Notes under the pieces: generated by a model
Database searches by the model: none
What the model was told of the DNA's origin: nothing
What the model saw: only the letters and a program-made list of their open reading frames with translations
Made by a program: the position numbers and the translations under genes
Source of the DNA: a virus
DNA length: 64,000 nucleotides
Direction: 5' to 3' (one strand)
Virus record (IMG/VR): IMGVR_UViG_3300050343_000285
Coordinates: 1 to 64,000 of that record
Shown: positions 1,976 through 18,202 of the stretch, piece after piece
Layout of the letters: the number at the start of each line of letters is the position of its first letter
Position numbering within the stretch: the first letter of the stretch is position 1

Positions 1976-2281
1976 ATACCCTCCACTTTCGCTGACTATA
2001 ACCATTCTAACCAAACCTTTCGGTTTAGGTGTGACAATAGTTATCTCCTATTTATATTATAATTATAAAACCCTTCCTAAGTCCTTACTGGGAAACAACT
2101 TACGCCTCCTACCATTATATCGGATTTCAACCCCTTTGTCCATTAGGAAAAGAACGTAAGTCCTTGTCAGATATAGACTTATGAACATTAACTTTTCATC
2201 TTATTCATCTTATTATTATTGGCACATTTCGTGCGGCCGCTTTGTAGCTAAGTCCTTATCTAGTAACGACTTAGACATAAA

Positions 2282-2321
2282 TAAAAAAGAGAGGGCCGAC
2301 CTGACAACTAGGCCGACCCTC
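2282..2321 (-). terminator. intrinsic terminator after the DUF932 gene
   Basis: Minus strand GAGGGTCGGCCT-AGTTGTC-AGGTCGGCCCTC followed by TCTTTTTT. Confidence 0.75.
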
Positions 2322-2351
2322 AACTGGCAACGCACCACGAAAGGAGAGCGT

Positions 2352-3298
2352 TTAGAGCGAATTAGCGTATTCTGTTGCCAACGCTAAGGCTCGATTATTA
2401 GCAGCACCATTTTGACCAAACCACAGGCTTTCCATACGGTTATTAGTATTGCGACCTTTGGTGTAATTTAGATACTCGTTGAAGCCGTTGTAAGCAGCCC
2501 ACCACGTACCCTTAACTCCGGGCATACTTTGCTTTGGCCCTTCAATCGTAGCAAGAACATCATCAAGGATATTTTTGGTACGAGTTTTCAAGTCTTCGTC
2601 AGCAGTCTTTTCTACATTCAGCAATGTTTTAACATACTTGCGAACGTCAACCTGATTGAAGTTACGACCAGCAAGGAATCGGAACTGTTCAGCAGTAGCC
2701 TCGAACTGTCCGTTGATATTATCCATAATATCTCTGACATTATCTAGATTAGCCGCTGCACTTTTCGTATGTCTAATACGTAGAAGTTTGCTTACGCCGT
2801 TTTGGTGAGCAAAAGCCAAGGTATTGACACAAACAACACGAATTGGAGTGTATCCGACACGAATAGCGGTTGTGCCATCGTGACTGTTGGATAGAAGAAT
2901 AAACTTCTGCACCTCATCACCCTTGACAATTTCGCTAGGGTCACGGTTGAGTTGAGCCAAGGCCCAGACTTTTTGACCGTCACTTAACGAACCACCCGTA
3001 TGCAGACTGCATTCACCAGCATCAATAAATGGCTGAAACCAGTTAAAAGCATCTTTATTCTGAAGAGGAACATATCGTGGGCCGACTACACCTAAAATGG
3101 TATTGTCAGTCTTTCGATAGGTTGCTCTTGCAGGTACATCATAACCATCTTTGGTTACAAGGTCTTTCGTCCCTACTTCCCAATCAAGACCACTCGCCTC
3201 GATGCTTCCGAGATTGTTGGAGCATCTTCCAATTTTTCTCCAAGGCCATGCCAAGGAGTCGCTCCAGTGTAAAACATAGATTCAACATTAGCAGGCAT
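2352..3298 (-). CDS. DUF932 family phage/plasmid protein (frameshift near 3204)
   Basis: MPANVESMFYTGATPWHGLG start after SD AAGGA joins ASGLDWEV..., LLSNSHDGT, VRVVCVNTL, IRHT and GTWWAAYNGFNEY in another frame. Confidence 0.85.
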
Positions 3299-3453
3299 TT
3301 CAGTTCCTTTCGTAAGAGTGTCATTGCCTTTGTTCTCTCAGTATACCATATATATCGTCGGATGCAAGGGGTATTCTTTAAACAAAATAAAAATAAACGT
3401 AAGTCCTTGTCAGTAAACAACTTACGAGCAACCCGGCCGCACTATTTATGCCG

Positions 3454-4008
3454 TTATAGATATTCTATACCCAAGTCTTTTTTACAATATTCGGGATGGT
3501 TTCTGTATGCACACTCATCTTTTATATAAGAGTAAACCCCCATACACTTAGATCGTGAACTTTCTATATCAATACTTTTTAGGATATGCTTAATAGTATC
3601 TCCTGAACATATTAAATCATCAACAATAATATATTTCTTTGTATATGGGCCTTCTACATAGAATTTGCTGTACCCTTTTAAATCTTTCCTTACAATAATA
3701 ATGTTCTTTTTTAATAACTCAGCAATCTGTGGAACAATCATCAATCCGCTAGTACCACAACAGGCTATTGAATCATAATCAATATTTAACTTTTTTAGAT
3801 AAGAGTATGTTGTCATAATTATCCTATTTCGATATTTATGATTTAACAACTTAGAAGTATGAGCAGCGCCTTGTATAACGCTACCATCTTCATTTCTTCT
3901 GTATTCATCTAATTGTTGCATTAAAACATTCATAATATAAAGACTGGCGACCTGATTCGAACAGGCTATATAATTTATAACTAGATAGATATATGTGTCC
4001 CACCACAC
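3454..4008 (-). CDS. type I phosphoribosyltransferase-like protein (start probably ~3933)
   Basis: PRPP-binding motif YIIVDDLICSGDT; IACCGTSG and IIIVRK. Confidence 0.8.
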   Translation of the reverse strand: MWWDTYIYLVINYIACSNQVASLYIMNVLMQQLDEYRRNEDGSVIQGAAHTSKLLNHKYRNRIIMTTYSYLKKLNIDYDSIACCGTSGLMIVPQIAELLKKNIIIVRKDLKGYSKFYVEGPYTKKYIIVDDLICSGDTIKHILKSIDIESSRSKCMGVYSYIKDECAYRNHPEYCKKDLGIEYL

Positions 4009-4026
4009 CGCACCAGCCAGAAGAGA

Positions 4027-4206
4027 TCAGTATTCTATTTTATCACTAATATCATCATAATAATTCCAACTTTGTCTGTCAACGGTATCTTCTCTACAAT
4101 CTTCATCATACTCCTCATTATTAATCATGGACTCAATATAATTAGCGCTATTATCAAAAATATCATTATTGTTATCCTTTAATACTTTCCATTCAAAGCC
4201 ACTCAT
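4027..4206 (-). CDS. small acidic hypothetical protein (59 aa, below the track cut-off)
   Basis: MSGFEWKVLKDNNNDIF...; AAGGAGAG SD. Confidence 0.6.
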   Translation of the reverse strand: MSGFEWKVLKDNNNDIFDNSANYIESMINNEEYDEDCREDTVDRQSWNYYDDISDKIEY

Positions 4207-4244
4207 AAAATCTCTCCTTTGTGAAAACTACCGAACATCACCAG

Positions 4245-4317
4245 TACCCCCAGTAGGACTCGAACCTACAACATACGGTTTAAAAGACCGCTACTCTACC
4301 GATTGAGTTATAGGGGC
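4245..4317 (-). tRNA. trnK: tRNA-Lys(UUU), no encoded CCA
   Basis: Cloverleaf: GCCCCTA/TGGGGGT acceptor, anticodon loop CTTTTAA, GTTCGAGTC T-loop. Confidence 0.9.
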
Positions 4318-4321
4318 AAAG

Positions 4322-4394
4322 TAGGGCGTGAGGGAATCGAACCCACTTCTGTAGTTAATAAGACTACGGTCCTTGACCATTGAACGAACGCCCC
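4322..4394 (-). tRNA. atypical tRNA with anticodon UAU (Ile), U at position 37
   Basis: GGGGCGT/ACGCCCT acceptor, GTAGT-CTTATTA-ACTAC anticodon arm, GGTTCGATT T-loop with one T-stem mismatch. Confidence 0.7.
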
Positions 4395-4400
4395 GTAGCA

Positions 4401-4739
4401 CTACCACCAACTACTATATTCTACGCTCATGCCTTTGCAGATGGCTGCACGAGCATTCTGGATAAATTGAGTATCCTCATCCTTGTAATAATCATCACTA
4501 TCGCCACCAAAAAAGAAACCTTGAGTTTCTGGTAAATCTTTCTGATTAATGGCTTTATTGAGATCGTCAAGATCTTCTGTAGTTATTTCTACAGCCACGC
4601 AATTAAATTCTTCCTTGCCACCTTTTTTATGATACAAGTCTTCCATCCATCCCTGAAGATTAGGGTGTTTTCTCCAGCAAGCGATTTCTTCACTATTACC
4701 TTCTGAGTCTACAGCGTATGCAAATTGATCCAAACCCAT
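4401..4739 (-). CDS. conserved-looking phage hypothetical protein (MGLDQ...WRKHPNLQGWM...YSSWW)
   Basis: ORF with AAGGAG SD and sigma70 promoter TTGACT-16-TATAAT at 4759-4786. Confidence 0.8.
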   Translation of the reverse strand: MGLDQFAYAVDSEGNSEEIACWRKHPNLQGWMEDLYHKKGGKEEFNCVAVEITTEDLDDLNKAINQKDLPETQGFFFGGDSDDYYKDEDTQFIQNARAAICKGMSVEYSSWW

Positions 4740-4937
4740 TTGTCTCTCCTTTTCTTAAATTATACCCAAGATGTCCAATAAGTCAATAGTCCGCTAATGC
4801 TCTTCTCCGAATATCCATGCGGGTGCGAACTCTGCGAGGCCGGTTATCATGAGTACCAGAACCAGAACGATGAATGTTGTGTCCACGAGATACCTCCCAA
4901 GGTTTTTTAGTTGAAACTTTTATTGAACCACATTTAC

Positions 4938-5237
4938 TCATAGTTTATCCTTTAATAAGTCTTCAAGAAATTCCTTAGCAACATGATCAGGATCCTCTTC
5001 TACATCCACATCACATACATTTAGTTCTCCATCAAAAGCATCTCTGTATGCTACTCCTAAGTCTTCTAGTATGTAATCATCACGCTCATCTTCGTCTAAT
5101 TCCTGATACTCTGTACCTGTAATAATATGTTTATGAGATTCATTCTCTATATAATCTCCGATCCATTGAAATCTGATACTCTCAGGGTCAGCCTCAACCC
5201 AACCAGAAAACTCTATGATAATTTTAGTCATTACCAA
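4938..5237 (-). CDS. acidic hypothetical protein
   Basis: ORF track; GGAG SD. Confidence 0.65.
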   Translation of the reverse strand: MVMTKIIIEFSGWVEADPESIRFQWIGDYIENESHKHIITGTEYQELDEDERDDYILEDLGVAYRDAFDGELNVCDVDVEEDPDHVAKEFLEDLLKDKL

Positions 5238-5339
5238 GTTTCTCCACTATTAGGTCACAAATCATATCAATAGTGCTAGGATCACTACGACCATCAAGGA
5301 TACATCTAATGTCTTCTTGCATTTGTTCACATATCTCGT

Positions 5340-5513
5340 TCACTTTCTGCTCCAATCTCTAAAGAACTCCCATCGAATCCCAACGTCCATTGTACCATCT
5401 ACTGGTCGATTGTCAAGGGATATTGTTTTATTACAGAACATAGTGGTTTTTGTAGTTGTTACACATCCACTACAGAATATCAAGATGAACGCCAAACATA
5501 GTCTATATACCAT
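5340..5513 (-). CDS. small putative lipoprotein (57 aa)
   Basis: MVYRLCLAFILIFCSGC lipobox-like N-terminus; AAGGAGG SD; sigma28-like element at 5535-5562. Confidence 0.55.
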   Translation of the reverse strand: MVYRLCLAFILIFCSGCVTTTKTTMFCNKTISLDNRPVDGTMDVGIRWEFFRDWSRK

Positions 5514-5668
5514 TCCACTACCTCCTTAAGAGTTATATCGTCATCCTCAAGGATTTTCTTTACCTTATCTGTCTCTACCTGATTCATCACACTCATCTTG
5601 TGATTTAGGTAATCTAATACTGTTGTTATTTTTTCTTTTTTATCCAATATTATTCTCCAAATAGTTAA

Positions 5669-5740
5669 TAGCCCCGGCGAGAATCGAACTCACATCGACG
5701 GTTTAGAAGACCGCTGTTCTATCCGTTGAACTACGAGGCC
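5669..5740 (-). tRNA. trnR: tRNA-Arg(UCU)
   Basis: GGCCTCG/CGGGGCT acceptor, GCGGT-CTTCTAA-ACCGT anticodon arm, GTTCGATT T-loop. Confidence 0.9.
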
Positions 5741-5748
5741 AATAAGAA

Positions 5749-5797
5749 AGCCAGAGCCGCAGTCTTGGTTATCCCCATTGACGCTGCGACTCTGACT
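5749..5797 (-). other. long RNA hairpin (14-bp outer stem) between the ORF and tRNA-Arg; terminator or processing site
   Basis: AGTCAGAGTCGCAG/CTGCGGCTCTGGCT with G-U pairs only on the minus strand. Confidence 0.6.
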
Positions 5798-5804
5798 ATT
5801 CCGA

Positions 5805-6065
5805 TTAGGCTGTAGCAACTTCTGCTTCTACCCTAGCCTTAGATGCCTTATGAGCATCACCGGCTTCTTTAACGCCAATACCGAACTTACGGTTGCGAGC
5901 AACTTTCCATCCTTGTTCTGAATATTCCTTAACACCGTCTGCTTTACACAGGGCTAGAGTATCTTCAGGCAATCCGTCAGTAAGTGCTTGACGAATTGTA
6001 TCTTCGATAACTTCGGTATCAAGTGCCTCAGAAGCAATAGTAACATTAAAAGAAAAAGCCTTCAT
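5805..6065 (-). CDS. hypothetical protein (86 aa)
   Basis: ORF downstream of composite promoter 6142-6170. Confidence 0.7.
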   Translation of the reverse strand: MKAFSFNVTIASEALDTEVIEDTIRQALTDGLPEDTLALCKADGVKEYSEQGWKVARNRKFGIGVKEAGDAHKASKARVEAEVATA

Positions 6066-6252
6066 GGTGAAATCTCCAAAAGTAAACCAAACTTAGTAAC
6101 TCGCACAGTGCTTGTCACTTATAATATCATTCTACCATATATTATCGTCATGTCAACCTTAATAACTTGAGGAAAGGTAAAAAAATAATCTCTCGTAAGT
6201 CGTTGATATAAAACAACTTAGGCATGCTGCGTGCGGCCGTTTTTACAGAAAG

Positions 6253-6590
6253 ACCCGTTACAGCCCTACTTCTCAAAGATGTCTTTTAGTCAAATAAGAC
6301 TAATAACCCTCATAACGATTTTCAGCGATCTGTAACGGGTAATAGATAAACCGCCTTGCCCCATGAAACAATAACAGGATAGGTCTTACAGGCGGTTATA
6401 TTATTGGACGGGGAGGACTTCTTTTTCTACCTCCAACTTTTCAGGGCATGATATGTCAGTGTTCCCTACTTCGCACCGCTAGCCCAAACCTCAAGCACTC
6501 GCCCGTTGGTAAGGATTCGCGTACTGTTGCACCCTCATGCGGGCCAGCACACTTTCAGTCACCGTCCTATAACAGGGTAGCGAACCCTGC
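6253..6590 (-). ncRNA. structured non-coding cassette containing a 163-nt tRNA-like multibranch RNA (6405-6567) and flanking long stems
   Basis: GGACGG/CCGTCC+A closing stem stacked on GGAGG/CCTCC; GCTGGCCC/GGGCTAGC; AACCGCCT/AGGCGGTT; ACCCGTTACAG/CTGTAACGGGT; GC-rich; no ORF of 60 aa or more. Confidence 0.7.
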
Positions 6591-6601
6591 TATGTATTGT
6601 A

Positions 6602-7117
6602 TTATGTTTCCTCCATAGTATCATAGTATTCGTGCATACTGAACTCATCTCGCAGAGATTCTGGAAAATCGTTCCAGTTGCCCTCATAAGAATCATCCGT
6701 ACCATTGTGCCATATTCCGGCAAAACTCATCCCTGGCTCAAAATAGGACGCTTGTACGTCAAATCCCAAGACTACCAACCTCTCATAGAATCCCAATGGA
6801 GGACTCCATGCACTATCGAACGTTATACTAAGTTCGTTATCTACCCTAGTTGGTTCCAGACCATACCCATCTCCACATCCAATATCCCACTTTGTACCCC
6901 AATTGGCTACACGCCATAGATACCAGTTGTTGTTTACGTTATCATCTTTGCTCATAGCCTTATTCTCACCCATCATCATAGTTGGATCACTGGGATCTCG
7001 TGGAGTAGGATAGAAAGTTTCGATAGTCCAATCATTCCGATAGGCTTTCTCGAATTTGTCCAGCATAGACTTATCTTCGTGTGTTACAGTCAATTTATTC
7101 ATGCACCAATTAGGCAT
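6602..7117 (-). CDS. YubB/Api92-like (DUF1281) ferredoxin-like domain protein
   Basis: MPNWC...WYLWRVANWGTKWD...FDSAWSPP...YFEPGM signature. Confidence 0.8.
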   Translation of the reverse strand: MPNWCMNKLTVTHEDKSMLDKFEKAYRNDWTIETFYPTPRDPSDPTMMMGENKAMSKDDNVNNNWYLWRVANWGTKWDIGCGDGYGLEPTRVDNELSITFDSAWSPPLGFYERLVVLGFDVQASYFEPGMSFAGIWHNGTDDSYEGNWNDFPESLRDEFSMHEYYDTMEET

Positions 7118-7508
7118 AACATCTCTCCTCTACAATATGTATTCTGTTGCCGTCCGTGACCAGACTATTAAAGTCATAGTCGTCCCAATCAAAATCGCCG
7201 TCATCATTCACTCGTCTCCAACTTGGCTCGACTATAGGATTATAACATAATCTTTCTAGGTTGTCAATAGGTATACTACCCTTTTCATTTATAAAAAAGT
7301 TATCACATTCTACCCAACCACAGACATCCTTCTTTCCTGCTGCATGAACTTTCTTAGCAGCATTTTTTTTATTTATTAGTATACAGCCTGTCATTTCGAT
7401 CTGATACTTTTGTGGATCAAGATACGAGACTGTACCATCCCATGCTCTAATCTGCCAGTGCATATAGTGCTTACCACGTTGCAAGTGAAATCGTACTCTG
7501 TATTTCAT
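7110..7508 (-). CDS. hypothetical protein (start MKYRVRFHL; track start overlaps the promoter)
   Basis: GGAGAAGGAG SD before the ATG at 7508. Confidence 0.7.
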   Translation of the reverse strand: MKYRVRFHLQRGKHYMHWQIRAWDGTVSYLDPQKYQIEMTGCILINKKNAAKKVHAAGKKDVCGWVECDNFFINEKGSIPIDNLERLCYNPIVEPSWRRVNDDGDFDWDDYDFNSLVTDGNRIHIVEERCYA

Positions 7509-7601
7509 AATTATCTCCTTCTCCCTAGTATACATTATCGGCATTATATTGTCAAGAACTTTAGTAATTTCGCTGACTGCACCATTGCCACCAATCCTAT
7601 A

Positions 7602-7822
7602 GGATAGGGTGAGACATAATAGGACTTAGGCATTACTCGTACTAGAGCAACTCTTTCCCGTATACCTGTCAGGCTGCCAAGGTGGTATACGCCCTATCCA
7701 TCTTAATGTACGGCCATCGCACTAGGGACTTGCACCCTACAAGTATCTCCGAATGTTTGACGACAAAGCCTTATCGTATCACAATCTTGGGCTTGAATAC
7801 TTGGGTAACTCTTCCGTGCCAT
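7602..7822 (-). ncRNA. second structured non-coding cassette: tRNA-like ~107-nt RNA (7716-7822) plus a multibranch hairpin (7602-7699)
   Basis: ATGGCAC/GTGCGAT acceptor-like stem, TAGGG-TGCAAGT-CCCTA T-arm, CAAGTATT/GATACTTG; GGATAGGG/CCCTATCC enclosing GTATACC/GGTATAC; directly downstream of promoter 7843-7870. Confidence 0.65.
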
Positions 7823-7941
7823 GTATTGTAAGTATACTATATTTATCGTCATTGTCAATAGTATTCTTTAGTATAATATAGAAATAATTATGGCACAAGG
7901 AGTGCGGCCGGGTCGCACGTAAGTCCTTATTCTACAACAAC

Positions 7942-8169
7942 TTACGTAGGGTATCCTTCTTTTCTTAAAATGTCTTTAGTTGGTACGACAAAAGTTAATT
8001 GGTCCGCATTCGTATAGTCTTTCATTCCACGCTGATCAATATACATATACTCGTCTAAAATATCATGTTTATTCATTTCATGTATCACTGTTCTACAGGC
8101 AGCGTAGGGTTGTTGACTTGTCGAATAAATTAATTGTAGAGTACCACTTGAAATATAATATTTAGCCAT
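7942..8169 (-). CDS. hypothetical protein (75 aa)
   Basis: ORF; stop codon falls inside a 29-bp inverted repeat. Confidence 0.65.
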   Translation of the reverse strand: MAKYYISSGTLQLIYSTSQQPYAACRTVIHEMNKHDILDEYMYIDQRGMKDYTNADQLTFVVPTKDILRKEGYPT

Positions 8170-8389
8170 CTATCCATACCTCCGAGTGTGAATATTCCAT
8201 ATCTATATCACATCCACCGCAAACAGGAGTTCCATTCTGTTCGTACCAATCTGGCATTATCTCAACTTCTGTACTACAGTCTTGACATATCCAAAAATTT
8301 TTTATGTGATCATCTGGTATTTTTGTAAACATTATAGGATTCTTTCTTAATGAGATGGAAACAATACGTTGCCTAATCCCTTTACGCAC
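8162..8389 (-). CDS. small zinc-ribbon protein (start probably 8332)
   Basis: CQDC...CGGC pairs. Confidence 0.65.
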   Translation of the reverse strand: MRKGIRQRIVSISLRKNPIMFTKIPDDHIKNFWICQDCSTEVEIMPDWYEQNGTPVCGGCDIDMEYSHSEVWIDG

Positions 8390-9057
8390 AAATTACAGGC
8401 TACACTATTCTTAGTAGGGGTGCAAGTAACAACACCACGACCACGACGAATCTCTGGACAAGTAATATATTTTTCTTCACCAAGAACAACCAACTTGGGC
8501 AGACTATCACGCCATTCTTGAGCCTTAACCTTTCCCCTTGGACGTTTAGTAGCAATTTTTTCGTCGCTATCGCACCATGCGAATAATTTGAAACCTACCG
8601 CTTTGGCATCGAGAACATTTTGAGCATTGTGGACACTAGCATATACAGCCATATACTTGTCCAGACTAACAAGCCGACTATCATAAATATGAGTATAAAA
8701 CCACATATCTGGCAAATTACCACCAGAGGCAAGAATACTCTCGCAAGCCCATACGATATTATCGACATATTCTACATCCAATTCTGAACCATTTTTATAA
8801 AAATCACCACGCTCATGCCAACGAATAGACTTATCTTTTTTTTCTGCGTTCACTATCATAGCACGGATTTTGTTTTTCTCCGTGATTAGATTCTGCATAC
8901 CAGCAGGACGAACACCGGGATAAATTTTTTCTAATTGTTCGGCATAACAACCATTACCTAGAAAATCACAACTAGGCGGGCATGTGTCCCCAACTGGTCG
9001 AGAAACTACAATACATTTTTCTTTACCTAGTTTATCATTACCGTTTGCTGTTTTCAT
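8347..9057 (-). CDS. phage gp88-like protein
   Basis: TCPPSC...GCYA, IRWHERGDF, WFYTH, YASVH, TCPE...C...CNLC pattern. Confidence 0.7.
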   Translation of the reverse strand: MKTANGNDKLGKEKCIVVSRPVGDTCPPSCDFLGNGCYAEQLEKIYPGVRPAGMQNLITEKNKIRAMIVNAEKKDKSIRWHERGDFYKNGSELDVEYVDNIVWACESILASGGNLPDMWFYTHIYDSRLVSLDKYMAVYASVHNAQNVLDAKAVGFKLFAWCDSDEKIATKRPRGKVKAQEWRDSLPKLVVLGEEKYITCPEIRRGRGVVTCTPTKNSVACNLCVKGLGNVLFPSH

Positions 9058-9311
9058 AATACTGCTCTCCGTGTGTGTGCTTCAAGTATATCATATTATC
9101 GTCTGGTGTCAACTAAAAACTATAGAAAAAATAAAAATAATGTTTGGCACAGAATTTGCTACACTTTCGCTGGCTATACCATATCGGCCCAGCCTTTAGG
9201 CTTAGATAAGACATGAGGTCTTTCGGCACACGGAGTGCGGCCGGTCCGCACCTAAGTCATTGCTGGGCAACAACTTAGGGCGGTTCACGGCACACACACC
9301 ACGGAAGAGAG

Positions 9312-9695
9312 TTATGCTACTGCCCAACCAAATAATGGCTTGCGGCAGTTCTTTACACGTTCGCAGTAAAACTGTCGAACATTACCATCCACTGTTTCAC
9401 ATGTTACCAAATGATTGGTACGCTGAAACTTTGGATCATTTCGACGATAGGTACTATGAGCATTCATTTTACGAATTGTCCGCTCGTCGAACTTTACAAC
9501 AGGCTCCACAACGCGAGCCAAAACACGTTTTGAGTCTCCGTGTAGAGGTTGCATATACTCAAAGTTGTATACTTCTCCAACTTGAGCATTGCACAAACTA
9601 GCACGAAAACCACCATATACAGCATAGATACCAAACGCAATCAACGCAAGGGCTCCTGCTGCTAAGATACCAGCAATCAACATTACATTATCCAT
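9312..9695 (-). CDS. hypothetical protein with N-terminal TM helix (start MDNVML)
   Basis: Hydrophobic LIAGILAAGALALIAFGIYAV; upstream sigma70 promoter 9733-9761. Confidence 0.7.
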   Translation of the reverse strand: MDNVMLIAGILAAGALALIAFGIYAVYGGFRASLCNAQVGEVYNFEYMQPLHGDSKRVLARVVEPVVKFDERTIRKMNAHSTYRRNDPKFQRTNHLVTCETVDGNVRQFYCERVKNCRKPLFGWAVA

Positions 9696-9757
9696 TATAA
9701 AACTCCTAAGTGTGAAAACCAAACCTAAAACCATTCTACCATACTCTTGACACCGTG

Positions 9758-10060
9758 TCAAGCCTTAATCGTCATTCCATCCTCAAAAGGTGTAATCCCA
9801 TTTACATACCATTCCCAATTTTCTTGGCGTACATAAAAAGGACTAAACTTATTGATTCTGTCTTTTGTCGTGGGTGATTTGTGCCCACCATGTCTTAGCG
9901 TTACGCTGTCGTCATCATGAATAGTAACAACATCCGTACTGTATAACATGAAAGCCACGCTACCATCCGGCTTGATTCTTGCGGTGGTATTATTGGCTAC
10001 CTTACGTTGCATTCTGTTAGTCTTACCTAAAACCAATTGTGTTGCTTCTGCGTGTGTCAT
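9758..10060 (-). CDS. hypothetical protein (100 aa)
   Basis: AAGGAG SD; composite promoter 10082-10110. Confidence 0.75.
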   Translation of the reverse strand: MTHAEATQLVLGKTNRMQRKVANNTTARIKPDGSVAFMLYSTDVVTIHDDDSVTLRHGGHKSPTTKDRINKFSPFYVRQENWEWYVNGITPFEDGMTIKA

Positions 10061-10184
10061 AAGTATTTCTCCTTACTTGTTATATCGTCAATTATACAGG
10101 GTAAACTTTAGTTGTCAACAGAAAAAAAAGAAAATAATTTTTGGCATACTGCGTGCGGCCTCTTTTTATGTAAGTCCTTATAGA

Positions 10185-10529
10185 TCAATCACTTACGTTC
10201 ATATCTCTGTGACCCCAAAATCTCATTTCGTTTTCTTTATCATCCCAATAGCATTGTACCTCATCTTTAGAACATAGTTCGGCTAATACAAAACCCATAT
10301 TCATACTATTGACATCTTCTAAAAACATTTCCATTTTTTCTCTAGTAGATATAAACTCCCCATCGTCTTCTTCACAATAGCCACGTAAATGATTAATCAA
10401 CATACCCTCATTAAGATTTTCAAAGTCTGGAATTATATGTTCAACAACGCGATTAAGATCTACCGCAAATTCTTCCATGGTTTTTCTCCTTAATTTTTCA
10501 AAATCAGCAACTAACAACCAACTCATCAT
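10185..10529 (-). CDS. acidic hypothetical protein (start probably ~10478)
   Basis: ORF; 3' end overlaps a 29-bp inverted repeat. Confidence 0.6.
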   Translation of the reverse strand: MMSWLLVADFEKLRRKTMEEFAVDLNRVVEHIIPDFENLNEGMLINHLRGYCEEDDGEFISTREKMEMFLEDVNSMNMGFVLAELCSKDEVQCYWDDKENEMRFWGHRDMNVSD

Positions 10530-11097
10530 CCTGTACTAAATTACGCTCTAGCATACGATCCATAATAGTATCCATAAGCCTACCATAATCATATGTTGGC
10601 TCATCTTGAAAATCAAGCCCTTCCGACGGGTGAATAATAAAGTCTAAGGTATCATGAGGTATTGATGCTGTTATCTTATCCCCACTATGTTCAAAATACT
10701 TACAAATATTATTATAACTACCTACAGCAATAGAATATGGTGCAGAAGTTTGAGTAAGTATGATGTAATCAAACATTTTTTCTATATTATAGTTTTTACC
10801 TAACTTGTTAGCAATCGTTACAGCATTGGTTTTGCCAGTACGTTTCTGGAACATTTTTTGTTGAGATTTTCCAGATACTCGTTCTTTACAAAAAGTCCAA
10901 TCGTATCCAACCTCATCTACATATTCTAGATATGGAAAAACTTTAGCATATTTTTTATCAATCAGTTTTGCTTTCATAAATCTGTGACCAGAATCATTTA
11001 AGCTGGCTCCAATGTTATGGCATTGTTGAAGTAGTTCGTGACAGCTTTTTGGACTGTTAGTTAAATAAGCTGAGAGTAAATTACTTACGGTTTTCAT
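10504..11097 (-). CDS. hypothetical protein, possible PD-(D/E)xK nuclease fold
   Basis: GYD...ERVSGK and FDYIILTQ motifs (weak). Confidence 0.6.
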   Translation of the reverse strand: MKTVSNLLSAYLTNSPKSCHELLQQCHNIGASLNDSGHRFMKAKLIDKKYAKVFPYLEYVDEVGYDWTFCKERVSGKSQQKMFQKRTGKTNAVTIANKLGKNYNIEKMFDYIILTQTSAPYSIAVGSYNNICKYFEHSGDKITASIPHDTLDFIIHPSEGLDFQDEPTYDYGRLMDTIMDRMLERNLVQDDELVVSC

Positions 11098-11159
11098 AGC
11101 GTTGTCCTTTCGTATTTAGTATCTTACCATACTATTATCGACGTGTCAATATCAAAACT

Positions 11160-11465
11160 TTATTCTTCGTAAGTAATAAATACCCACGACCACTCTCTGG
11201 TTTTTAGATTGTATTTATAATGTTTATAAACTACCCTATTGTAAATATGTCTATTGTCCACAGTGGTTTTAAGAATATCATTTTCCAGACTTATATCTAC
11301 TATATCAGAGTAGGGAAAGTCTAACAGCAAACGATAGTCGCTACTGTAAAACCAGTAGGTATTATATGTCTTATTGTATGTTCTATGGACACGTTCACCT
11401 ATATAATCTAAATCAATTACACAGTTTCCTGAAATAGCTAATCCTAAAATTAGTTTTAATAACAT
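11160..11465 (-). CDS. hypothetical protein, signal-peptide-like N-terminus
   Basis: MLLKLILGLAISGNC; AAGGAG SD. Confidence 0.65.
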   Translation of the reverse strand: MLLKLILGLAISGNCVIDLDYIGERVHRTYNKTYNTYWFYSSDYRLLLDFPYSDIVDISLENDILKTTVDNRHIYNRVVYKHYKYNLKTREWSWVFITYEE

Positions 11466-11647
11466 TTTGTTTTCTCCTTGTTTTAGTCTTAAGTATTGCT
11501 ATTCTACCAATTATTATCGTCTAGATCAAGCAATTTCTTGATTTTTATTTTGGTAGCTGTAAGTGCTTGTCAAATAAGAACTTAGGCACGCAGAGTGCGG
11601 CCGGGTAGCCCCTCTAGGGGGTGAACCCTATTTGAGGAGCATTACCT

Positions 11648-11860
11648 TCAATTAGATGTAATATTGTTGTAAGGATAATTCCCATTATAAGGGCTGTTAC
11701 CATAATTCGGACTAGGCTCTTCTGGTCTTTCCTCGTAGTATTCTTCTCGTTCATATTCGCTCTCCTTAGCGTCTAACATATCCCTGAGATACCAACACAA
11801 CAACGTGCCGCATACATATCCTATCGTCAAACTAGCAACGTCAAGTTGAATAAAATTCAT
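11648..11860 (-). CDS. small membrane protein
   Basis: Hydrophobic N-terminal segment; overlaps the upstream stop codon (ATGA). Confidence 0.6.
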   Translation of the reverse strand: MNFIQLDVASLTIGYVCGTLLCWYLRDMLDAKESEYEREEYYEERPEEPSPNYGNSPYNGNYPYNNITSN

Positions 11861-12087
11861 TCTCCCTTATACTCCTCATAAGTGAAACTTTGTACGCCAT
11901 TACGATATTGTTGCTCTACAACACCTGAAATTGCTACAATATTTTCTTGACGATCTTCTGGTGTGTTAAGATCAATTCTAGGTACTGCTACCATGATTGT
12001 CAAGTTGTCCTGCTCTTCGCCTGTAATTTCATCGACAATATTTTTGCAATCGTAGTATCTAAAATTTGGATCCATCGCGTTATTCAT
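11857..12087 (-). CDS. hypothetical protein
   Basis: Translationally coupled ORF. Confidence 0.65.
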   Translation of the reverse strand: MNNAMDPNFRYYDCKNIVDEITGEEQDNLTIMVAVPRIDLNTPEDRQENIVAISGVVEQQYRNGVQSFTYEEYKGE

Positions 12088-12266
12088 TTTTCATCCCTGT
12101 ATCGTTTGAGTAATTCTTTAGAACCTGATCGAACCACATTTTCTAATATCTCTAATTCTGTCAAGTCTCCTCTCAATTTTGCTTTCGGGATGTCCTTTCC
12201 ACATTCCCTAACCCACATCTGTATATCTTCGGTTGGAAATTCGTCAAAATAGTATGGCATATCCAT
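12084..12266 (-). CDS. hypothetical protein
   Basis: Translationally coupled ORF. Confidence 0.6.
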   Translation of the reverse strand: MDMPYYFDEFPTEDIQMWVRECGKDIPKAKLRGDLTELEILENVVRSGSKELLKRYRDEK

Positions 12267-12269
12267 AGT

Positions 12270-12533
12270 TTAACCCCAATCTTCTGGATACTCAAGACAG
12301 TCGTGGTAGCATTCCCATTCCGCCCCGTATCCGTATAGATCGTTACATTCCTGCTCAAGATCAGGCTGTCCGTCATCATCCCCATCATAGAAGGCATGTT
12401 CGTACTGATCATCCTCCATCATGTCACGGGTGTCAAGACCATCAACAACGTCCTCATCTGAACGATAAATGTTTTCAGCAGGTGTCATAACTTTTCTCCA
12501 ATTGGGTCTTGTTGTTATATTCCAAGTATACAA
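12270..12533 (-). CDS. acidic hypothetical protein (start probably ~12488)
   Basis: Track start overlaps promoter 12537-12564; GGAGAAAAGTTATG. Confidence 0.6.
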   Translation of the reverse strand: MYTWNITTRPNWRKVMTPAENIYRSDEDVVDGLDTRDMMEDDQYEHAFYDGDDDGQPDLEQECNDLYGYGAEWECYHDCLEYPEDWG

Positions 12534-13022
12534 TCATTATCGACATTGTCAAGCGAAATCTTTATTTTTTTTCATAGATTGTGTCCAAGTAAATTTCCTC
12601 CGGCGTGATAACATAACCATACTCACAATTAGGGGTATACACTCCGAAATATACTTTTCCGTTGTCGTACCCTTCGAACCCGATCATCATGCCAAAGATA
12701 GTGTAGATTGTCAACATCATTTTTCTCCGTGGGTTATTGTTTCCTATATATATTATCGACTTGTCCAGGCGAAAACATTAGGATAAAAAAGAAAATTTTT
12801 GGGAATTCACTGGCTGTCGTGCTATGACAAGTGAAGCGGGAGGCTTAGGTGCGACAGAACGTATACCAACTTTGGCGGCCGGTCGAACTGCTCGTAAGTC
12901 CTTTACTGACAACAACTTACGATTACTTTATGTTAAATACTAATTTAGTAAACATATAAGCAAACAACAACACGTACCCCATCGAAACGATAGGGCCGTA
13001 TTGCTGAATGAATGGAACCAAG

Positions 13023-13286
13023 TCAAGCCACGGCTGCATCATCTTCTTCTACCTCGTCGTCTTCCGCATCTTCAGCAAAACATGCTGCGTTGATCTCATC
13101 TATATCTAAGTTGCTATCATTCCATGCTACATGGTCAGGAGTTTCCAGTGAATCCAACTCCCGCATAGTACCAACAAACTCATCATAATTAGCACAAGAC
13201 ATGCTGAGATTGTAGAGCCCTTCATCGTTAGCAATCCACAAGCAAACATTCCACGTTTCATAGTTTTCATATCCGTTGTAACTCAT
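13023..13286 (-). CDS. phage hypothetical protein (YNGYENYETWNVCLW type)
   Basis: GAGG SD; sigma70 promoter TTGACG-16-TATACT at ~13332-13359. Confidence 0.75.
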   Translation of the reverse strand: MSYNGYENYETWNVCLWIANDEGLYNLSMSCANYDEFVGTMRELDSLETPDHVAWNDSNLDIDEINAACFAEDAEDDEVEEDDAAVA

Positions 13287-13490
13287 GATAGCCTCTCAAG
13301 TAAAATCATTGAAACAGTAACCACTAAGAAAAGTATAACACACATTCCATCAGCGTCAAATCTTTTTTTCATCTTTAACTCCTTACTGTTATATCGACAT
13401 TATATACAGTATAACTTTAGTTGTCAATAGATAAATTTAAAATATTTTGCGGCCGCACTCCCTGTGCCTAAGTCCTTTACCGATAATGGT

Positions 13491-13919
13491 TTACGTCAAC
13501 AATACATATCGTTTCTTATTACCTCCCATTGTTTCCAGTTTTGAAATTTTATGTCGAAAAAATAAGGCTGCTTTCCCTTGTATATATCTACTGCTTAGAT
13601 GTTGATTCATTTCCTCGAATGATATTTTATCTTTACCCTCTACCATCTGATTCCATATAACATCTTTCTGCTCTGATGTAACATACTTAGGATTCATAGG
13701 AGTAGCAGTCATACTCTTCATCTTTTGTTCAATTTGTTTCTCTACAAACTCTGGTGATAGGTCACTCATAATATCAGAGTACTGTTCTTTTATATCCTTT
13801 ACTCTCTGCTCATATCGTTGGTACTGCTCTATTATCAGTCGATTCTGAATTAGTACTTCTGCCATATCTCTGCACATATCATCTAATGCTGTCAATCTTG
13901 TTTCAAAATCCATAATCAT
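13491..13919 (-). CDS. hypothetical coiled-coil protein
   Basis: ORF track; coupled to the upstream gene. Confidence 0.7.
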   Translation of the reverse strand: MIMDFETRLTALDDMCRDMAEVLIQNRLIIEQYQRYEQRVKDIKEQYSDIMSDLSPEFVEKQIEQKMKSMTATPMNPKYVTSEQKDVIWNQMVEGKDKISFEEMNQHLSSRYIQGKAALFFRHKISKLETMGGNKKRYVLLT

Positions 13920-14182
13920 TCTCCTTTGGATGTTTTATTGCCCCATGCTTTAATAGCAGATACTGAACATGCGTGAAGGTTATTGTCAAATTTAAATATA
14001 CCTCCTACCGTTTCAATACTCTCTGTTGCCCAACCCTTACCATCATTCATGTCTTCTCTGTAATAACACATCTCCGTTCCTTTATAAGTATACATATCTA
14101 CAACTTTCCTACGCCATCCATGACCCTTTTTTCTTTCCCATACACTTCCGGTTTCTACTGTAATTATTTTTCTGTTACTCAT
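13916..14182 (-). CDS. hypothetical protein
   Basis: Coupled ORF. Confidence 0.65.
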   Translation of the reverse strand: MSNRKIITVETGSVWERKKGHGWRRKVVDMYTYKGTEMCYYREDMNDGKGWATESIETVGGIFKFDNNLHACSVSAIKAWGNKTSKGE

Positions 14183-14343
14183 TGTAAAAGTTCCTGCAAT
14201 GTAAAATGTTGTCTGCTACTCTCATTCCGTCCTTATCGTCAGTCTCCCAACAAGACACGTAGTACATTTGTACCAAACGAGTTGATAACTTGTCAAGGAT
14301 ATCATATAGGTTCTTTTCAATTAGTTCGTTCATTGTAAGCATA
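14175..14343 (-). CDS. hypothetical protein (start MLTMNEL)
   Basis: GGAGAG SD inside the end of the upstream gene. Confidence 0.55.
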
Positions 14344-14679
14344 CTCTCCTGTGTCATAGTTTCTAATCTCTTGTAGTCTATCAGCAATTTCAAAATGGTC
14401 AAGCCATCCAAATACTTCTACCGCCCCATGTCGCTTGTGTATAGGATGACTCTCTAATACTTTGTACGACATATTAGGATCGGTGCCGTGTTTATGTTCT
14501 ATAATCCAGACTTCAAAGTAGCCGCTATTCCCGCCATAACTTTTGTCATGATTACACACAATAGCACCAAGCCCATTAGAGAAAAAATAACGCTTAACAT
14601 ATCGACCCTTCTCTTTCATATACTGGGAATCAAAATATGTTTCATTTAGTTTCAGTGGGTTCACTTTAGTTGTGATCAT
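14317..14679 (-). CDS. hypothetical protein (FSNGLGA...YGGNSGYFEV type)
   Basis: GAGGAG SD. Confidence 0.7.
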   Translation of the reverse strand: MITTKVNPLKLNETYFDSQYMKEKGRYVKRYFFSNGLGAIVCNHDKSYGGNSGYFEVWIIEHKHGTDPNMSYKVLESHPIHKRHGAVEVFGWLDHFEIADRLQEIRNYDTGEYAYNERTN

Positions 14680-14878
14680 TTTTTACTCCTCAATATGTGA
14701 TAGTGTGAATGGGATTATAACATGATCGGCTACCTTTTGTCTAGCCTCAGTTTCTGTCATGGCCCCAACTTCGCCAATCTTATTTCCTTGTAGGTCAATT
14801 ACAGCCCAAACATTTTTTCTAGGATACACTACGCAATTATTGTTACTCATTTTAATTTCTCCTTATTTATAAAGTTTA

Positions 14879-15061
14879 TCAGCCAGCCCCGTGGAAGTCA
14901 AGGCTAGATTCAAAATGTACAGCTTCCGAACAATCAAAGTCTGTACGATCTTCGATAACCTCACAATGTTCGTAGCATGTGGGACAGATGTCTGCGTCGG
15001 AGTGAACCGAAGCACCACAGCAGTCTGAAGAGTAAACGATTTCAAAGTTGTTATTTAACAT
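14879..15061 (-). CDS. small Cys-rich (zinc-binding) protein
   Basis: SDCCGA...ICPTCYEHC; promoter 15113-15140. Confidence 0.7.
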   Translation of the reverse strand: MLNNNFEIVYSSDCCGASVHSDADICPTCYEHCEVIEDRTDFDCSEAVHFESSLDFHGAG

Positions 15062-15299
15062 TTTCTTTTCTTTCTAATCTTTGTTACTTGTTATATCTGA
15101 AGTATATATACTATATCGGAATTTGTCAAGCAATAATTTAGAAATATTTTTATTTTTTTTCTGTGTGCAAATATCATGCCATAATTTTTTTTCTTTTGGC
15201 ACATGATTTGCTATATGTTAAGATAGGTAACCCGGCCGGGCGAAATGCTCGTAAGTCATGATGTGGCAACGACTTACGAACATCCACCCCAATGGGTGA

Positions 15300-15512
15300 T
15301 TATGCAGCCTGATAGTGGCGTATACGATTACTTCTTCTTACTCTTTTTAGTTTTTCTCGTACGGCTTCTTTCATAAGTTCAGCAACTACACTATATTTTT
15401 TTGTAGTGTAAGTCTGTTCATTATCTCTTAGATCTTGTCCAAGTGTACGGATCCAAGCATCTAGTTCAACTGTTTTCATTTGCTGGAAAGTACTCATAGG
15501 TTTATTCTCCAA
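15300..15512 (-). CDS. hypothetical protein
   Basis: ORF track. Confidence 0.6.
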   Translation of the reverse strand: MENKPMSTFQQMKTVELDAWIRTLGQDLRDNEQTYTTKKYSVVAELMKEAVREKLKRVRRSNRIRHYQAA

Positions 15513-15786
15513 ATGGTGATTGTTCTAAGGTGGTTGCATAATGTAAACGTAACGCTGCTATTCTTTCATCACTTCCCGGTTTACCTACTGGTATAATCAT
15601 ATCGTCTTTACTACTAAGATACCTATCGTCTACCTTCGCTTGCTCACTCTTTACAATTTTTCTCATAGCCTTTCTATTAAACTTATGAACCGTACCATCC
15701 TGTTCAACACCTTTCCATATCATACTACATTCATCCCATGCAGCGGATAAAATAGGATATTTTCTCATTAGTTTTTCTGTACTCAT
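15502..15786 (-). CDS. hypothetical protein
   Basis: ORF track. Confidence 0.65.
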   Translation of the reverse strand: MSTEKLMRKYPILSAAWDECSMIWKGVEQDGTVHKFNRKAMRKIVKSEQAKVDDRYLSSKDDMIIPVGKPGSDERIAALRLHYATTLEQSPFGE

Positions 15787-16148
15787 TTTTTATCATCCTC
15801 AAATATAGGGTCGCCACACTCATCAACTGGTATACCGTCTTCACTCATAAATATATCACCATTCCGCAGTCCGTCAATAGTAATTTCTAATTTTTCTTGC
15901 TCTGTAAACATTTAGAATCTTTCCTGTCTACTGTGCTGCATTTAAGTAAATTTCATCGAATAAGTCTACCCCAGTGACTTCACACCAATCAAGCGGGTGT
16001 GAATTGTTGTCATCGCAAGGTTCTACCACACCTTCATTTTCTAGGGCGGCAATTAACAGTTGAGTATTTATATCTAACATCTCAATTTCTCCGTGGTAAG
16101 TGTATCAAAAGTGTACCAAAATTTTTCTGTCTACGTCAATAGCAAAAA

Positions 16149-16346
16149 TTAACCTAATCCCCAAACGCGGTTTAGGTCATAACTATTCTGTAATGTTCTC
16201 ATTACAATAGAATCATCTTGACAAAATTTGCCATTCTTAGCATATCCGATTACCTTGTTGGTATCGGTTGTTACTACTACTTGACGATTGTGAACGTCTA
16301 CGATTTTAAGATTGTTAGCTATTCGATTTTTTTGTGAAATAATCAT
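16149..16346 (-). CDS. hypothetical protein
   Basis: AAGGA SD; promoter 16378-16406. Confidence 0.65.
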   Translation of the reverse strand: MIISQKNRIANNLKIVDVHNRQVVVTTDTNKVIGYAKNGKFCQDDSIVMRTLQNSYDLNRVWGLG

Positions 16347-16526
16347 TTTTTATCCTTTGTTTAATGTCCTATTTACTATATCGGAATTTTAGCATAGTAA
16401 ACTTTAATGTCAAGAAAAAACTTTTTTTCTTTTCTAATATATATATAGTGCAAGTATCATGCCATTCGGATAAAATTTTTTTGGCTATACTTGTATACTT
16501 TTTATATTGTCATTATGGCATAATTC

Positions 16527-16744: not shown

Positions 16745-18202
16745 CTATCCTGTTTGCCCCAACAGCTTCTTAGATCCTACTAGCTGCCTTAATTCTTGAA
16801 TAGCTCCATCATCAAATTCCATCTCTACCCCATACTCCCTTTTACATATCTCCAATAATTCCTCATCTGAATACCTATCGCCAAAATATTCAACTAACTT
16901 TTCCGCCTCTATTCCCCACCTAGATAGAGCATCTCTTCTGTATAAATCCCCTGACTTTTCTTGAATCATCTTTGGTTTATATAGACTTAAATGAAATCTC
17001 ATTGCTCTAATCGTTCCTAACTTATATGAAGTTCCTAACTTTTGATTAACTAGTATCGCTAGGTCCTCATCTGAATATTCTTCATAATTATCTCTAATAA
17101 CACTCATGGCCCCTGTTTTGTCGCAATTTTTGATTCTTTTTCTATTTTTATTGATTGATTTGCCTTTAATTTTTCTTTTCATATTGCTTACTTGACGAGG
17201 TGTTAACTTTAAATCAAATTTCTTATTCAAAGCTTCTGCTATTTTAATATTCTTTTTCCCATACCTCTCCTCACACTCCTGTACAAATTCCTGTATATCT
17301 TTTCTTTTCCATAAACCTGGTCTCATAGCTCTTTTGTTATTATATATATCAGGATACTTTTTCCTTAACCCTAATTTCTTTTCCCAGCTATATACTGCTG
17401 TAGACACACTCTTATATTTCCTTTGGCAATTTCTTTTCCATCCATATAATTCAGTCAACTTATCTGCATCTCCCTCTAACCTTACCCAATCGTTTTCGAA
17501 TCTTCTTGGAAAATCCCCTCTTTTATCAATACTATTTTCACTATGAGTACCAGCTTTTAAATGATCTGGATTATAACAGCATTTATTATTACATAAATGA
17601 CGTACCAATTCTGGGTATTCTCCATATTTTTCCCAATAAGCTACTCTATGCTTAGTTAAATGTTTTACTTCACCATTTATCCGTATTTGCACCTTACCAT
17701 ATCCTGATCGCTGAATAGCATTACTTTCTTTACAAGGTGTTGCATTATAAAAGTTTTTATTGCTATAACTAAAATTATTCTTATATGCCTTACTCTTGAT
17801 AGCTTTTTCTAACCATGGTTTAATTTTGTCCACACTAATTGCCACCCACTTATTTAATAAATTATCTTTCGCCCACTTATGCTGATACTCTCTTTCTTTT
17901 GACAAAATTTCATCTTCGCTAAAACGCTCTAGTATAACAAAATTCATTTGATATTTAGGATCGTTATAACACTCTAGTAATTTACTTGAAGTTTTATAGC
18001 TAGTATTCTTTATATCTCTTAGATGCTGTTGACATCTATATATAATATCCATACTACTACCAACATAAATTTTAACACTTTTAACATTCTTCTTATTAAA
18101 AACAATACCATACACTCCACAGACCTTTTCCCTTGATCCTAAATGTACTTTTTCAAACTTTTCTACTTGGTCTTGAGTTAGTCTTTTTTGTTTTTGGCTC
18201 AT
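16745..18202 (-). CDS. free-standing endonuclease: GIY-YIG domain + HNH (His-Cys zinc-loop) domain + C-terminal HTH-like region
   Basis: GVYGIVF...IYVGSS...YRCQQH...ILE; GYGK...HRVAY...VRHLCNNKCCYNPDHLKAGTHSEN. Confidence 0.8.
   Translation of the reverse strand: MSQKQKRLTQDQVEKFEKVHLGSREKVCGVYGIVFNKKNVKSVKIYVGSSMDIIYRCQQHLRDIKNTSYKTSSKLLECYNDPKYQMNFVILERFSEDEILSKEREYQHKWAKDNLLNKWVAISVDKIKPWLEKAIKSKAYKNNFSYSNKNFYNATPCKESNAIQRSGYGKVQIRINGEVKHLTKHRVAYWEKYGEYPELVRHLCNNKCCYNPDHLKAGTHSENSIDKRGDFPRRFENDWVRLEGDADKLTELYGWKRNCQRKYKSVSTAVYSWEKKLGLRKKYPDIYNNKRAMRPGLWKRKDIQEFVQECEERYGKKNIKIAEALNKKFDLKLTPRQVSNMKRKIKGKSINKNRKRIKNCDKTGAMSVIRDNYEEYSDEDLAILVNQKLGTSYKLGTIRAMRFHLSLYKPKMIQEKSGDLYRRDALSRWGIEAEKLVEYFGDRYSDEELLEICKREYGVEMEFDDGAIQELRQLVGSKKLLGQTG

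Follow-up and report, generated by a model that had tools for sequence, protein, structure and literature searches.

The closest described counterparts of the elements reported here are the promoter-early stem-loop (PeSL) cassettes of T4-type phages (Arbiol et al. 2010, PMC2839356; Comeau et al. 2014, PMC4122927) and the -24/-12 promoters of bacterial sigma-54 (RpoN). The window analyzed is the first 64 kb of the 194,787-bp IMG/VR record IMGVR_UViG_3300050343_000285, an uncultured phage of 32.8 % G+C, in which twelve sigma-54-like sites lie among repeated 25-nt hairpins (hairpin A) and early promoters. As in PeSL cassettes, a stem-loop immediately precedes an A/T tract and a sigma-70 early promoter close to consensus, followed by a Shine-Dalgarno (SD) sequence and a start codon. 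The unit is likewise repeated between small early genes and stands where genes were gained, lost or swapped between relatives (breaks against the related loci L128, L137 and L132). Unlike the PeSL hosts, however, this phage gave no match to the T4 portal or capsid (Gp23) Pfam families in its complete record, the Gp23 search being a weak one in which the control genomes were negative as well. Unlike the PeSL stem-loop, hairpin A is a sequence-conserved element with a fixed internal mismatch, is common to many uncultured phages and is often doubled around a 28-nt GC spacer. A -24/-12 element is present here, whereas the PeSL descriptions contain none. From their sequence and by analogy, the cassettes thus appear PeSL-like in setting, outside a T4-type phage, with a -24/-12 element added.

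With bacterial sigma-54 promoters the sites share the form TGGCAY-N5-(T/G)TGC, the invariant GG and GC ten bases apart, T at -26, a purine at -20 and a T-rich -16/-15. However, they differ in lying in a virus with no detected rpoN or activator gene, in being arrayed in repeated cassettes at a fixed distance from a conserved hairpin and, in eight cases, in having G at -15 and -11 followed by GCCG. Pseudomonas phage YuA is a recorded case of phage use of sigma-54 promoters, with one sigma-54-like region (P015) linked to a mapped start (Ceyssens et al. 2008, as reported in PMC10914365). In contrast to the single region described in that report, the present phage has twelve predicted sites, two thirds of them antisense, in shuffled cassettes. 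We tentatively read these twelve as one family of host sigma-54 polymerase (-24/-12) promoters, mostly antisense, within early cassettes; judged by sequence this is plausible, though rather short of probable.

Sites were scored by consensus patterns (the general form GGCAY-N5-KTGC; TGGCAY-N5-KTGC; the canonical form TGGCAY-N5-TTGCW; and the variant GTGCGGCC), by shuffles and by base frequencies at unselected positions, rather than with a full RpoN weight matrix. The window contains 12 matches to the general form against 0.76 expected (shuffle maximum 3), 7 matches to TGGCAY-N5-KTGC against 0.18 expected, and 8 matches to GTGCGGCC against 0.29 expected, a number reached in 0 of 100 shuffles. 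All twelve general-form sites fall within 2221-16463, and the rest of the genome adds one match, at 180537(-). In the 194,787-bp genome, GTGCGGCC is confined to the same eight places (2231, 3435(-), 6231, 7902, 9235, 10153, 11595 and 13451(-)). A loose scan of the window (TGGCAC-N5-TTGCW with two mismatches) gave 27 matches against 22 expected, which is no enrichment, and the clustering is limited to strict matches.

In every one of the twelve, GG and GC are ten bases apart as in the definition of a sigma-54 promoter; four (9146+, 15198+, 15167- and 16450-) carry the full canonical consensus, and the other eight have the GTGCGGCC form. The sequence-only reading of this DNA had listed the same four canonical and eight variant sites, and each was found in place. 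It had also stated that most of them point against the early genes; eight of the twelve indeed oppose the minus-strand early genes, and the four that run with the genes (3439-, 13455-, 15167- and 16450-) had been missed.

Hairpin A is an inverted repeat, TAAGT-N15-ACTTA, with 11 exact copies and 1 degenerate copy, all within 2078-15276 and nowhere else in the genome. The distance of about 25 bp between sites and repeat that had been noted earlier turned out to reflect a tighter tethering. At five sites (2221+, 3439-, 7892+, 9225+ and 10143+) exactly 14 nt separate the -12 C from the TAAGT of the hairpin, while three others (6221+, 11585+ and 13455-) begin directly after ACTTA and so abut hairpin A. 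Along the genes, the order within a cassette is gene end, hairpin A, GC core or sigma-54-like motif, A/T tract, TTGACA-N16/17-TAnAnT, SD and start codon.

Conservation was analyzed in 66 related loci, which were gathered through the neighboring DUF932 gene (60-88 % identity) and oriented by their genes. At one orthologous early promoter the window carries the canonical TGGCACAGAATTTGCT, L128 carries TGGCATATCGCGTGCGGG and L137 carries TGGCATAGGGGGTGCTC, all of them 32-33 nt from the -35 element. GG (-24) and GC (-12) are constant among orthologous sites, and the five-base spacer is free. In the L128 orthologue of the 7892 cassette hairpin A has been lost and the motif retained. Because canonical and GTGCGGCC sites replace each other at orthologous promoters, their sequences identify them as one element. 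The window and the 66 loci together contain 32 unique TGGCAY-N5-KTGC sites, all intergenic in the contexts shown, of which 24 are antisense and 8 sense. An A/T tract separates the antisense sites from the next early promoter, whose -35 is 24 or 32-34 nt away.

A hairpin pattern scan of IMG/VR returned at least 119 stretches. Among all fetched loci there were 180 unique GGCAY-N5-NTGC sites; 59 had a hairpin within 75 nt downstream, and in 41 of these 59 it stood at 14-15 nt. The linker between motif and hairpin varies in sequence between phages, its length being constant. At unselected positions of 43 composites from 20 loci, T was found at -26 in 86 %, a purine at -20 in 100 % and T at -16 and -15 in 53 % and 58 %, respectively. 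These are the weaker preferences of the sigma-54 consensus, and they support the likeness. The converse search, in which only GGCA at the right hairpin distance was required, recovered textbook copies (e.g. TGGCACGGTATTTGCA) in unrelated contigs, and textbook TGGCACG-N4-TTGCA copies predominate in the relatives. The genome that holds L063 (G001) has 13 sites on a single strand, 12 of them within 10.5 kb and opposing the genes, and a textbook site in L133 lies about 50 nt ahead of an SD and ATG. A backwards-pattern control gave zero matches in three related phage genomes.

The sequence-only reading was therefore sound in its sigma-54 likeness: GG and GC are fixed among positional orthologues, the unselected positions follow the consensus, and the E. 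coli sites bound by sigma-54 include ATGCG and TTGCG (A at -15, G at -11), many bound sites there being antisense or intragenic and bound in an inactive state (Bonocora et al. 2015, PMC4591121). The GTGCG form lies within the range of real sites because ATGCG and TTGCG are among those bound in E. coli. What that reading lacked was the setting, namely the PeSL-like cassette of hairpin and early promoter.

From the sequence we infer binding by host sigma-54 RNA polymerase at the twelve sites, the start point, and any effect on the early genes. At the sites with the 14-nt distance, the first transcribed base would lie some 12 nt past the GC and coincide with the first base of the extended hairpin stem; at 7917, for example, the predicted start is the A of ACG-TAAGT...ACTTA-CGT. 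The product would be an RNA capped by a 5' hairpin. It is known that 5'-terminal stem-loops stabilize bacterial RNAs only when they are almost flush with the 5' end. The linker would have a fixed length because the predicted start falls at the foot of the hairpin, and the 14-15 nt distance, as a feature of sequence, favors a true start site over a mere decoy. At eight of the twelve sites the RNA would run antisense into the 3' end of the upstream early gene, diverging from the next early promoter. The other four would be read with the genes, two of them (15167- and 16450-) standing 36-37 nt ahead of a -35 element. Firing would require a host enhancer-binding ATPase, so that these RNAs would tie early-gene expression to a host signal.

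The CGGCCG words that had been called conspicuous in this DNA are indeed so, with 11 occurrences in the genome and 9 of them adjoining a hairpin. The GGCCG tail of the variant sites is a clade-wide GC core. It is because the core also adjoins hairpins that have no motif, both in relatives and in the window (12895 and 15252), that we place it outside the sigma-54 signal. By its sequence, GTGCGGCC is best read as a -12 element (gTGC) overlapping the GCGGCCG core that accompanies hairpin A throughout the clade. The usual cassette in more distant relatives pairs two hairpin A copies, the 28-nt spacer between them containing a GC core (e.g. GCGGCCGC), and continues directly into the A/T tract and the early promoter. 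This double-hairpin form is found, for example, in L144, L164, L169 and L192, where the spacer is GC-rich and quasi-palindromic and the two hairpins are 53 nt apart from start to start.

The same core beside motif-less hairpins could mean that the motif has no function and hitch-hikes on recombining, homogenized cassettes in the manner of PeSL shuffling, the GC core and chance flanks mimicking sigma-54. Synteny breaks between the window and L128, L137 and L132 do coincide with cassettes (e.g. near 6175, 9082, 10189 and 13480), and the parts of the cassettes vary in order and orientation. However, orthologous copies keep GG-N10-GC despite changed spacers and flanks, L128 kept the motif at one cassette after losing hairpin A, the strand bias is 24 to 8, and canonical copies occur in distant phages at the same hairpin distance. 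We consider such hitch-hiking distinctly unlikely.

Hairpin A itself has features of a protein-binding site. Positions 6/20 and 7/19 pair below chance among 439 unique copies (38 % vs 47 % and 33 % vs 42 %), the two half-sites differ consistently (TAAGTCCTT vs TAAGTTGTT), and the polarity relative to the genes is the same in 12 of the 12 window copies. A covarying RNA helix is unsupported for hairpin A, the inner pairs being mismatched more often than chance. The motif may accordingly be the site of another phage or host DNA-binding protein that acts with a hairpin A factor, for example in shutting off or boosting the adjacent early promoters, its likeness to sigma-54 being coincidental. Tethering to hairpin A in two fixed registers (14 nt and 0 nt), helical-repeat distances to the -35 (24 and 33 nt) and the failure of searches to find sigma-54 or activator genes in the phage would all agree with this. 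Nevertheless, the likeness to the sigma-54 consensus extends from the two elements to their exact spacing and to the weaker preferences in the flanks, the motif lacks the symmetry of most dimer sites, and it is the textbook copies that predominate in relatives. This explanation is somewhat unlikely.

As a single strand, hairpin A folds more strongly on the sense RNA (e.g. -19.4 vs -13.9 and -31.7 vs -24.9 kcal/mol), and PeSL stem-loops have been described as terminators (PMC4122927). Arm variants compatible with G-U pairing are commoner on the antisense strand (45 vs 13) but not exclusive to it. If the motif were an RNA element of sense transcripts, it would form a small hairpin which, together with hairpin A, terminates, processes or stabilizes the early mRNAs. 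However, the motif folds to 3-4 bp at most and a palindrome extension is present in 2 of 32 unique sites, with no sign of selection for it; the motif is therefore a bipartite sequence signal and not a structure. In addition, z-scores of the whole modules are mostly weaker than -2 (6 of 12 folds are weaker than -1), compensatory changes were not seen in the set analyzed, and the motif occurs in both orientations and on both sides of hairpin A. A role as RNA element is highly improbable, and the motif as an RNA hairpin or terminator was rejected on its 3-4 bp, the lack of palindrome selection and the weak z-scores.

From 1 to 18.2 kb every plausible gene is on the minus strand, forming the leftward early genes. 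Sigma-70-type promoters scoring 11-12 of the 12 consensus positions number 17 on the minus strand of this region and 1 on the plus strand, and the minus strand has a single strong intrinsic terminator (2321-2291). A T run follows hairpin A in only two or three copies, most copies being without a U tract. Sigma-54 polymerase could under these circumstances be bound but silent, its poised closed complexes standing head-on behind hairpin A, a short way upstream of the next early promoter, as a roadblock or insulator against read-through between early units. The sequence-only reading had already raised roadblocks, along with decoys and antisense promoters, as possible roles. The many strong promoters facing one terminator, the missing U tracts, the position of antisense sites upstream of the -35 and the failure to find an activator gene in the phage are in line with this, as is the binding of sigma-54 holoenzyme to promoters in an inactive state (PMC4591121). 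Yet a roadblock does not require the exact hairpin distance that is kept across divergent linkers, four sites run with the genes, most cassettes of relatives do without the motif, and no precedent was found for sigma-54 complexes as terminators. We regard a poised roadblock as unlikely.

The terminator at 2291-2321 (-) has a 12-bp stem with 8 G-C pairs and a T run, and lies directly 3' of the conserved DUF932 gene. It is kept in relatives, where a sigma-54-like site and hairpin A follow it in the orientation opposite to that in the window.

Domain searches of the phage and three relatives detected no phage-encoded sigma-54 or activator. All four were negative for the Sigma54 DBD domain and for an enhancer-binding ATPase, and the phage was also negative for CBD. 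Matches to PF00158, obtained in the phage and two of these three relatives, were AAA+ frames of 298-301 amino acids, and the phage's own frame was RuvB on scanning. A host-encoded activator may be available instead. The sole match among 185,579 species genomes was a 3.7-kb contig with the same cassette, binned in a Bacteroidetes metagenome-assembled genome (MAG) that has rpoN. Because the consensus TTGACA/TATAAT promoters and strong SD sequences of the phage are out of keeping with Bacteroidota, the contig was treated as a binning artefact. The composite pattern had no match in the 401 Bacteroidota genomes searched, a result that is uninformative for the host.

Several points weigh against reading the twelve sites as host sigma-54 promoters. 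Besides the negative searches for sigma-54 and activator domains, no upstream enhancer binding site was recognized. All eight variant sites carry G at both -15 and -11, and T at -26 is missing from four of them. A start at the hairpin foot is at odds with the three abutting sites, where the hairpin lies upstream. The usual cassette of more distant relatives is without the motif, and because most of their cassettes lack it, the motif is optional. Apart from the 3' end of the upstream gene, nothing stands out as a target of the antisense products. The coordinates of all sites and of the associated elements are listed in Table 1.

Table 1 Sigma-54-like sites, hairpin A copies, early promoters and copies of a third repeat family in the 64-kb window
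Feature	Position	Strand	Remarks
Sigma-54-like site, GTGCGGCC variant (TGGCAC-N5-GTGC+GGCC)	2221..2238	+	14 nt to hairpin A; antisense to genes; predicted start ~2246
Sigma-54-like site, GTGCGGCC variant (CGGCAT-N5-GTGC)	3435..3452	-	14 nt to hairpin A; sense; predicted start ~3427
Sigma-54-like site, GTGCGGCC variant	6221..6238	+	Abuts 3' end of hairpin A; antisense
Sigma-54-like site, GTGCGGCC variant (TGGCAC-N5-GTGC)	7892..7909	+	14 nt to hairpin A; 33 nt from -35 of divergent early promoter; predicted start ~7917
Canonical sigma-54-like site (TGGCACAGAATTTGCT)	9146..9160	+	33 nt from -35 at 9112; antisense; positional orthologue of GTGCGGG (L128) and GTGCT (L137) forms
Sigma-54-like site, GTGCGGCC variant (CGGCAC-N5-GTGC)	9225..9242	+	14 nt to hairpin A; antisense; predicted start ~9250
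Sigma-54-like site, GTGCGGCC variant (TGGCAT-N5-GTGC)	10143..10160	+	14 nt to hairpin A; 24 nt from -35 at 10118; antisense; predicted start ~10168
Sigma-54-like site, GTGCGGCC variant	11585..11602	+	Abuts hairpin A; followed by CCCC..GGGG hairpin; antisense
Sigma-54-like site, GTGCGGCC variant	13451..13468	-	Abuts degenerate hairpin A; sense; 27 nt from -35 at 13427
Canonical sigma-54-like site (TGGCATGATATTTGCA)	15167..15181	-	Sense; 37 nt upstream of -35 at 15129; same word in L115 and the genome of L128
Canonical sigma-54-like site (TGGCACATGATTTGCT)	15198..15212	+	Back to back with 15167-15181; antisense; 40 nt to hairpin A
Canonical sigma-54-like site (TGGCATGATACTTGCA)	16450..16464	-	Sense; 36 nt upstream of -35 at 16413
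Hairpin A copy	2078..2102		TAAGT-N15-ACTTA
Hairpin A copy	2157..2181		TAAGT-N15-ACTTA
Hairpin A copy	2249..2273		Partner of site 2221
Hairpin A copy	3400..3424		Partner of site 3439(-)
Hairpin A copy	6196..6220		Site 6221 abuts
Hairpin A copy	7920..7944		Partner of site 7892; final TTA is stop codon of minus-strand gene 7942..8169
Hairpin A copy	9253..9277		Partner of site 9225
Hairpin A copy	10171..10195		Partner of site 10143; overlaps end of gene 10185..10529
Hairpin A copy	11560..11584		Site 11585 abuts
Hairpin A copy	12895..12919		GC core CGGCCG at 12876-12881, no sigma-54-like motif
Hairpin A copy, degenerate (3' arm GTTTA)	13469..13493		Site 13455(-) abuts
Hairpin A copy	15252..15276		GC core CGGCCG at 15233-15238, core without motif
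Sigma-70-type early promoter (TTGACA-16-TATACT, GACGATAA in spacer)	7831..7858	-	Divergent from site 7892
Sigma-70-type early promoter	9085..9112	-	Divergent from site 9146
Sigma-70-type early promoter (12 of 12 consensus)	10091..10118	-	Divergent from site 10143
Sigma-70-type early promoter	6129..6156	-	Sense, downstream of 6196/6221 module
Sigma-70-type early promoter (12 of 12)	13399..13427	-	Downstream of site 13455(-)
Sigma-70-type early promoter	15101..15129	-	Downstream of sense site 15167(-)
Sigma-70-type early promoter	16386..16413	-	Downstream of sense site 16450(-)
Third repeat family copies	487-499, 962-974, 1706-1718, 1987-1999, 7568-7580, 9165-9177	-	CCTAA/TTAGG hairpin and (TGn)TATAGYCAGCGAAAG

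The early promoters share a conserved spacer word, GACGATAA, in the arrangement TTGACA-N1-3-GACGATAA-N7-TAnAnT, with a TAAAG box ahead of the -35 (in the window e.g. 7831-7858, 9085-9112 and 12525-12552; also in L128-L193). When the promoter pattern was required to include GACGATAA, the related loci gave 469 matches on the gene strand against 6 on the other. This strand bias therefore suggests, at the level of sequence, that the early promoters are read by an extra factor. A third repeat family on the minus strand consists of a hairpin of the CCTAA..loop..TTAGG type followed by (TGn)TATAGYCAGCGAAAG just ahead of the SD. Its copies at 9165 and 7568 are inserted within sigma-54/hairpin cassettes, and the family could represent either a shared leader or an additional, extended -10 class of promoter.

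No cultured relatives of the phage were found by DNA comparison. The nearest DUF932 homologue in a cultured phage has 32 % identity and belongs to Methylophilales phage Melnitz, in which the sigma-54-like motif is not enriched. The sole match of the phage terminase was a Bacillus phage (29.5 % identity over 35 % of the length).

The early region also contains three ordinary tRNA genes (Lys-TTT, Ile-TAT and Arg-TCT). An Rfam scan of 1-19 kb and 6200-7900 gave these three tRNAs only, with no match at the modules. Adjoining the three genes, ARAGORN made a tRNA-like call with a four-base anticodon (atct) at 3941-4018 (-), which is absent from the Rfam results and overlaps the start of the open reading frame (ORF) 3454..4008; this may be either a frameshift-suppressor-like tRNA or a false call. 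A 485-amino-acid ORF (16745-18202, minus strand), located where the leftward early region gives way to the rightward genes, has an HNH_3 match and a weak GIY-YIG match and is homing-endonuclease-like.

Two further stretches on the minus strand are candidate RNA regions. The first, at 6350-6600, separates gene 6602..7117 from the 6196 cassette and comprises about 250 ORF-free nt of higher G+C. A long hairpin (about 6352-6400) forms its end, and the L128 copy of this hairpin has a T run behind it, as in an intrinsic terminator. This stretch is a candidate structured non-coding RNA with no Rfam match. The second, at 7570-7830, has no convincing ORF (only a 51-amino-acid TTG frame at 7703-7858), is flanked on both sides by strong early promoters (-35 at 7858 and 7555) and is 85-87 % conserved in L128. 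It is a candidate non-coding RNA or long leader, again with no Rfam match.

Early transcription in phages is normally attributed to sigma-70 promoters and phage-made factors, and sigma-54 use by phages is limited to very few cases. If the sites bind sigma-54 polymerase, a clade of abundant uncultured phages would tie its early cassettes to an enhancer-dependent host pathway, and mostly antisense or poised complexes would sense host physiology at the first step of infection. The fixed promoter-to-hairpin geometry leads to exact predictions, with four plus-strand starts at about 2246, 7917, 9250 and 10168. Such a system would also be a tractable model for the widespread antisense sigma-54 sites of bacteria. 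In its most far-reaching form, which by our own estimate is improbable, a large clade of uncultured phages would carry a composite unit, one beside every early promoter and facing away from it, in which a conserved asymmetric hairpin has a host sigma-54 start placed at its base. Hairpin-capped antisense RNAs, or else poised polymerases, would then come on in response to a host signal relayed by an enhancer-binding protein of the host and would gate or insulate individual early cassettes, amounting to a phage-borne sigma-54 regulon without a phage activator. The cassette of hairpin and GC core, for its part, widens the PeSL idea of mobile regulatory cassettes beyond the T4-type phages.

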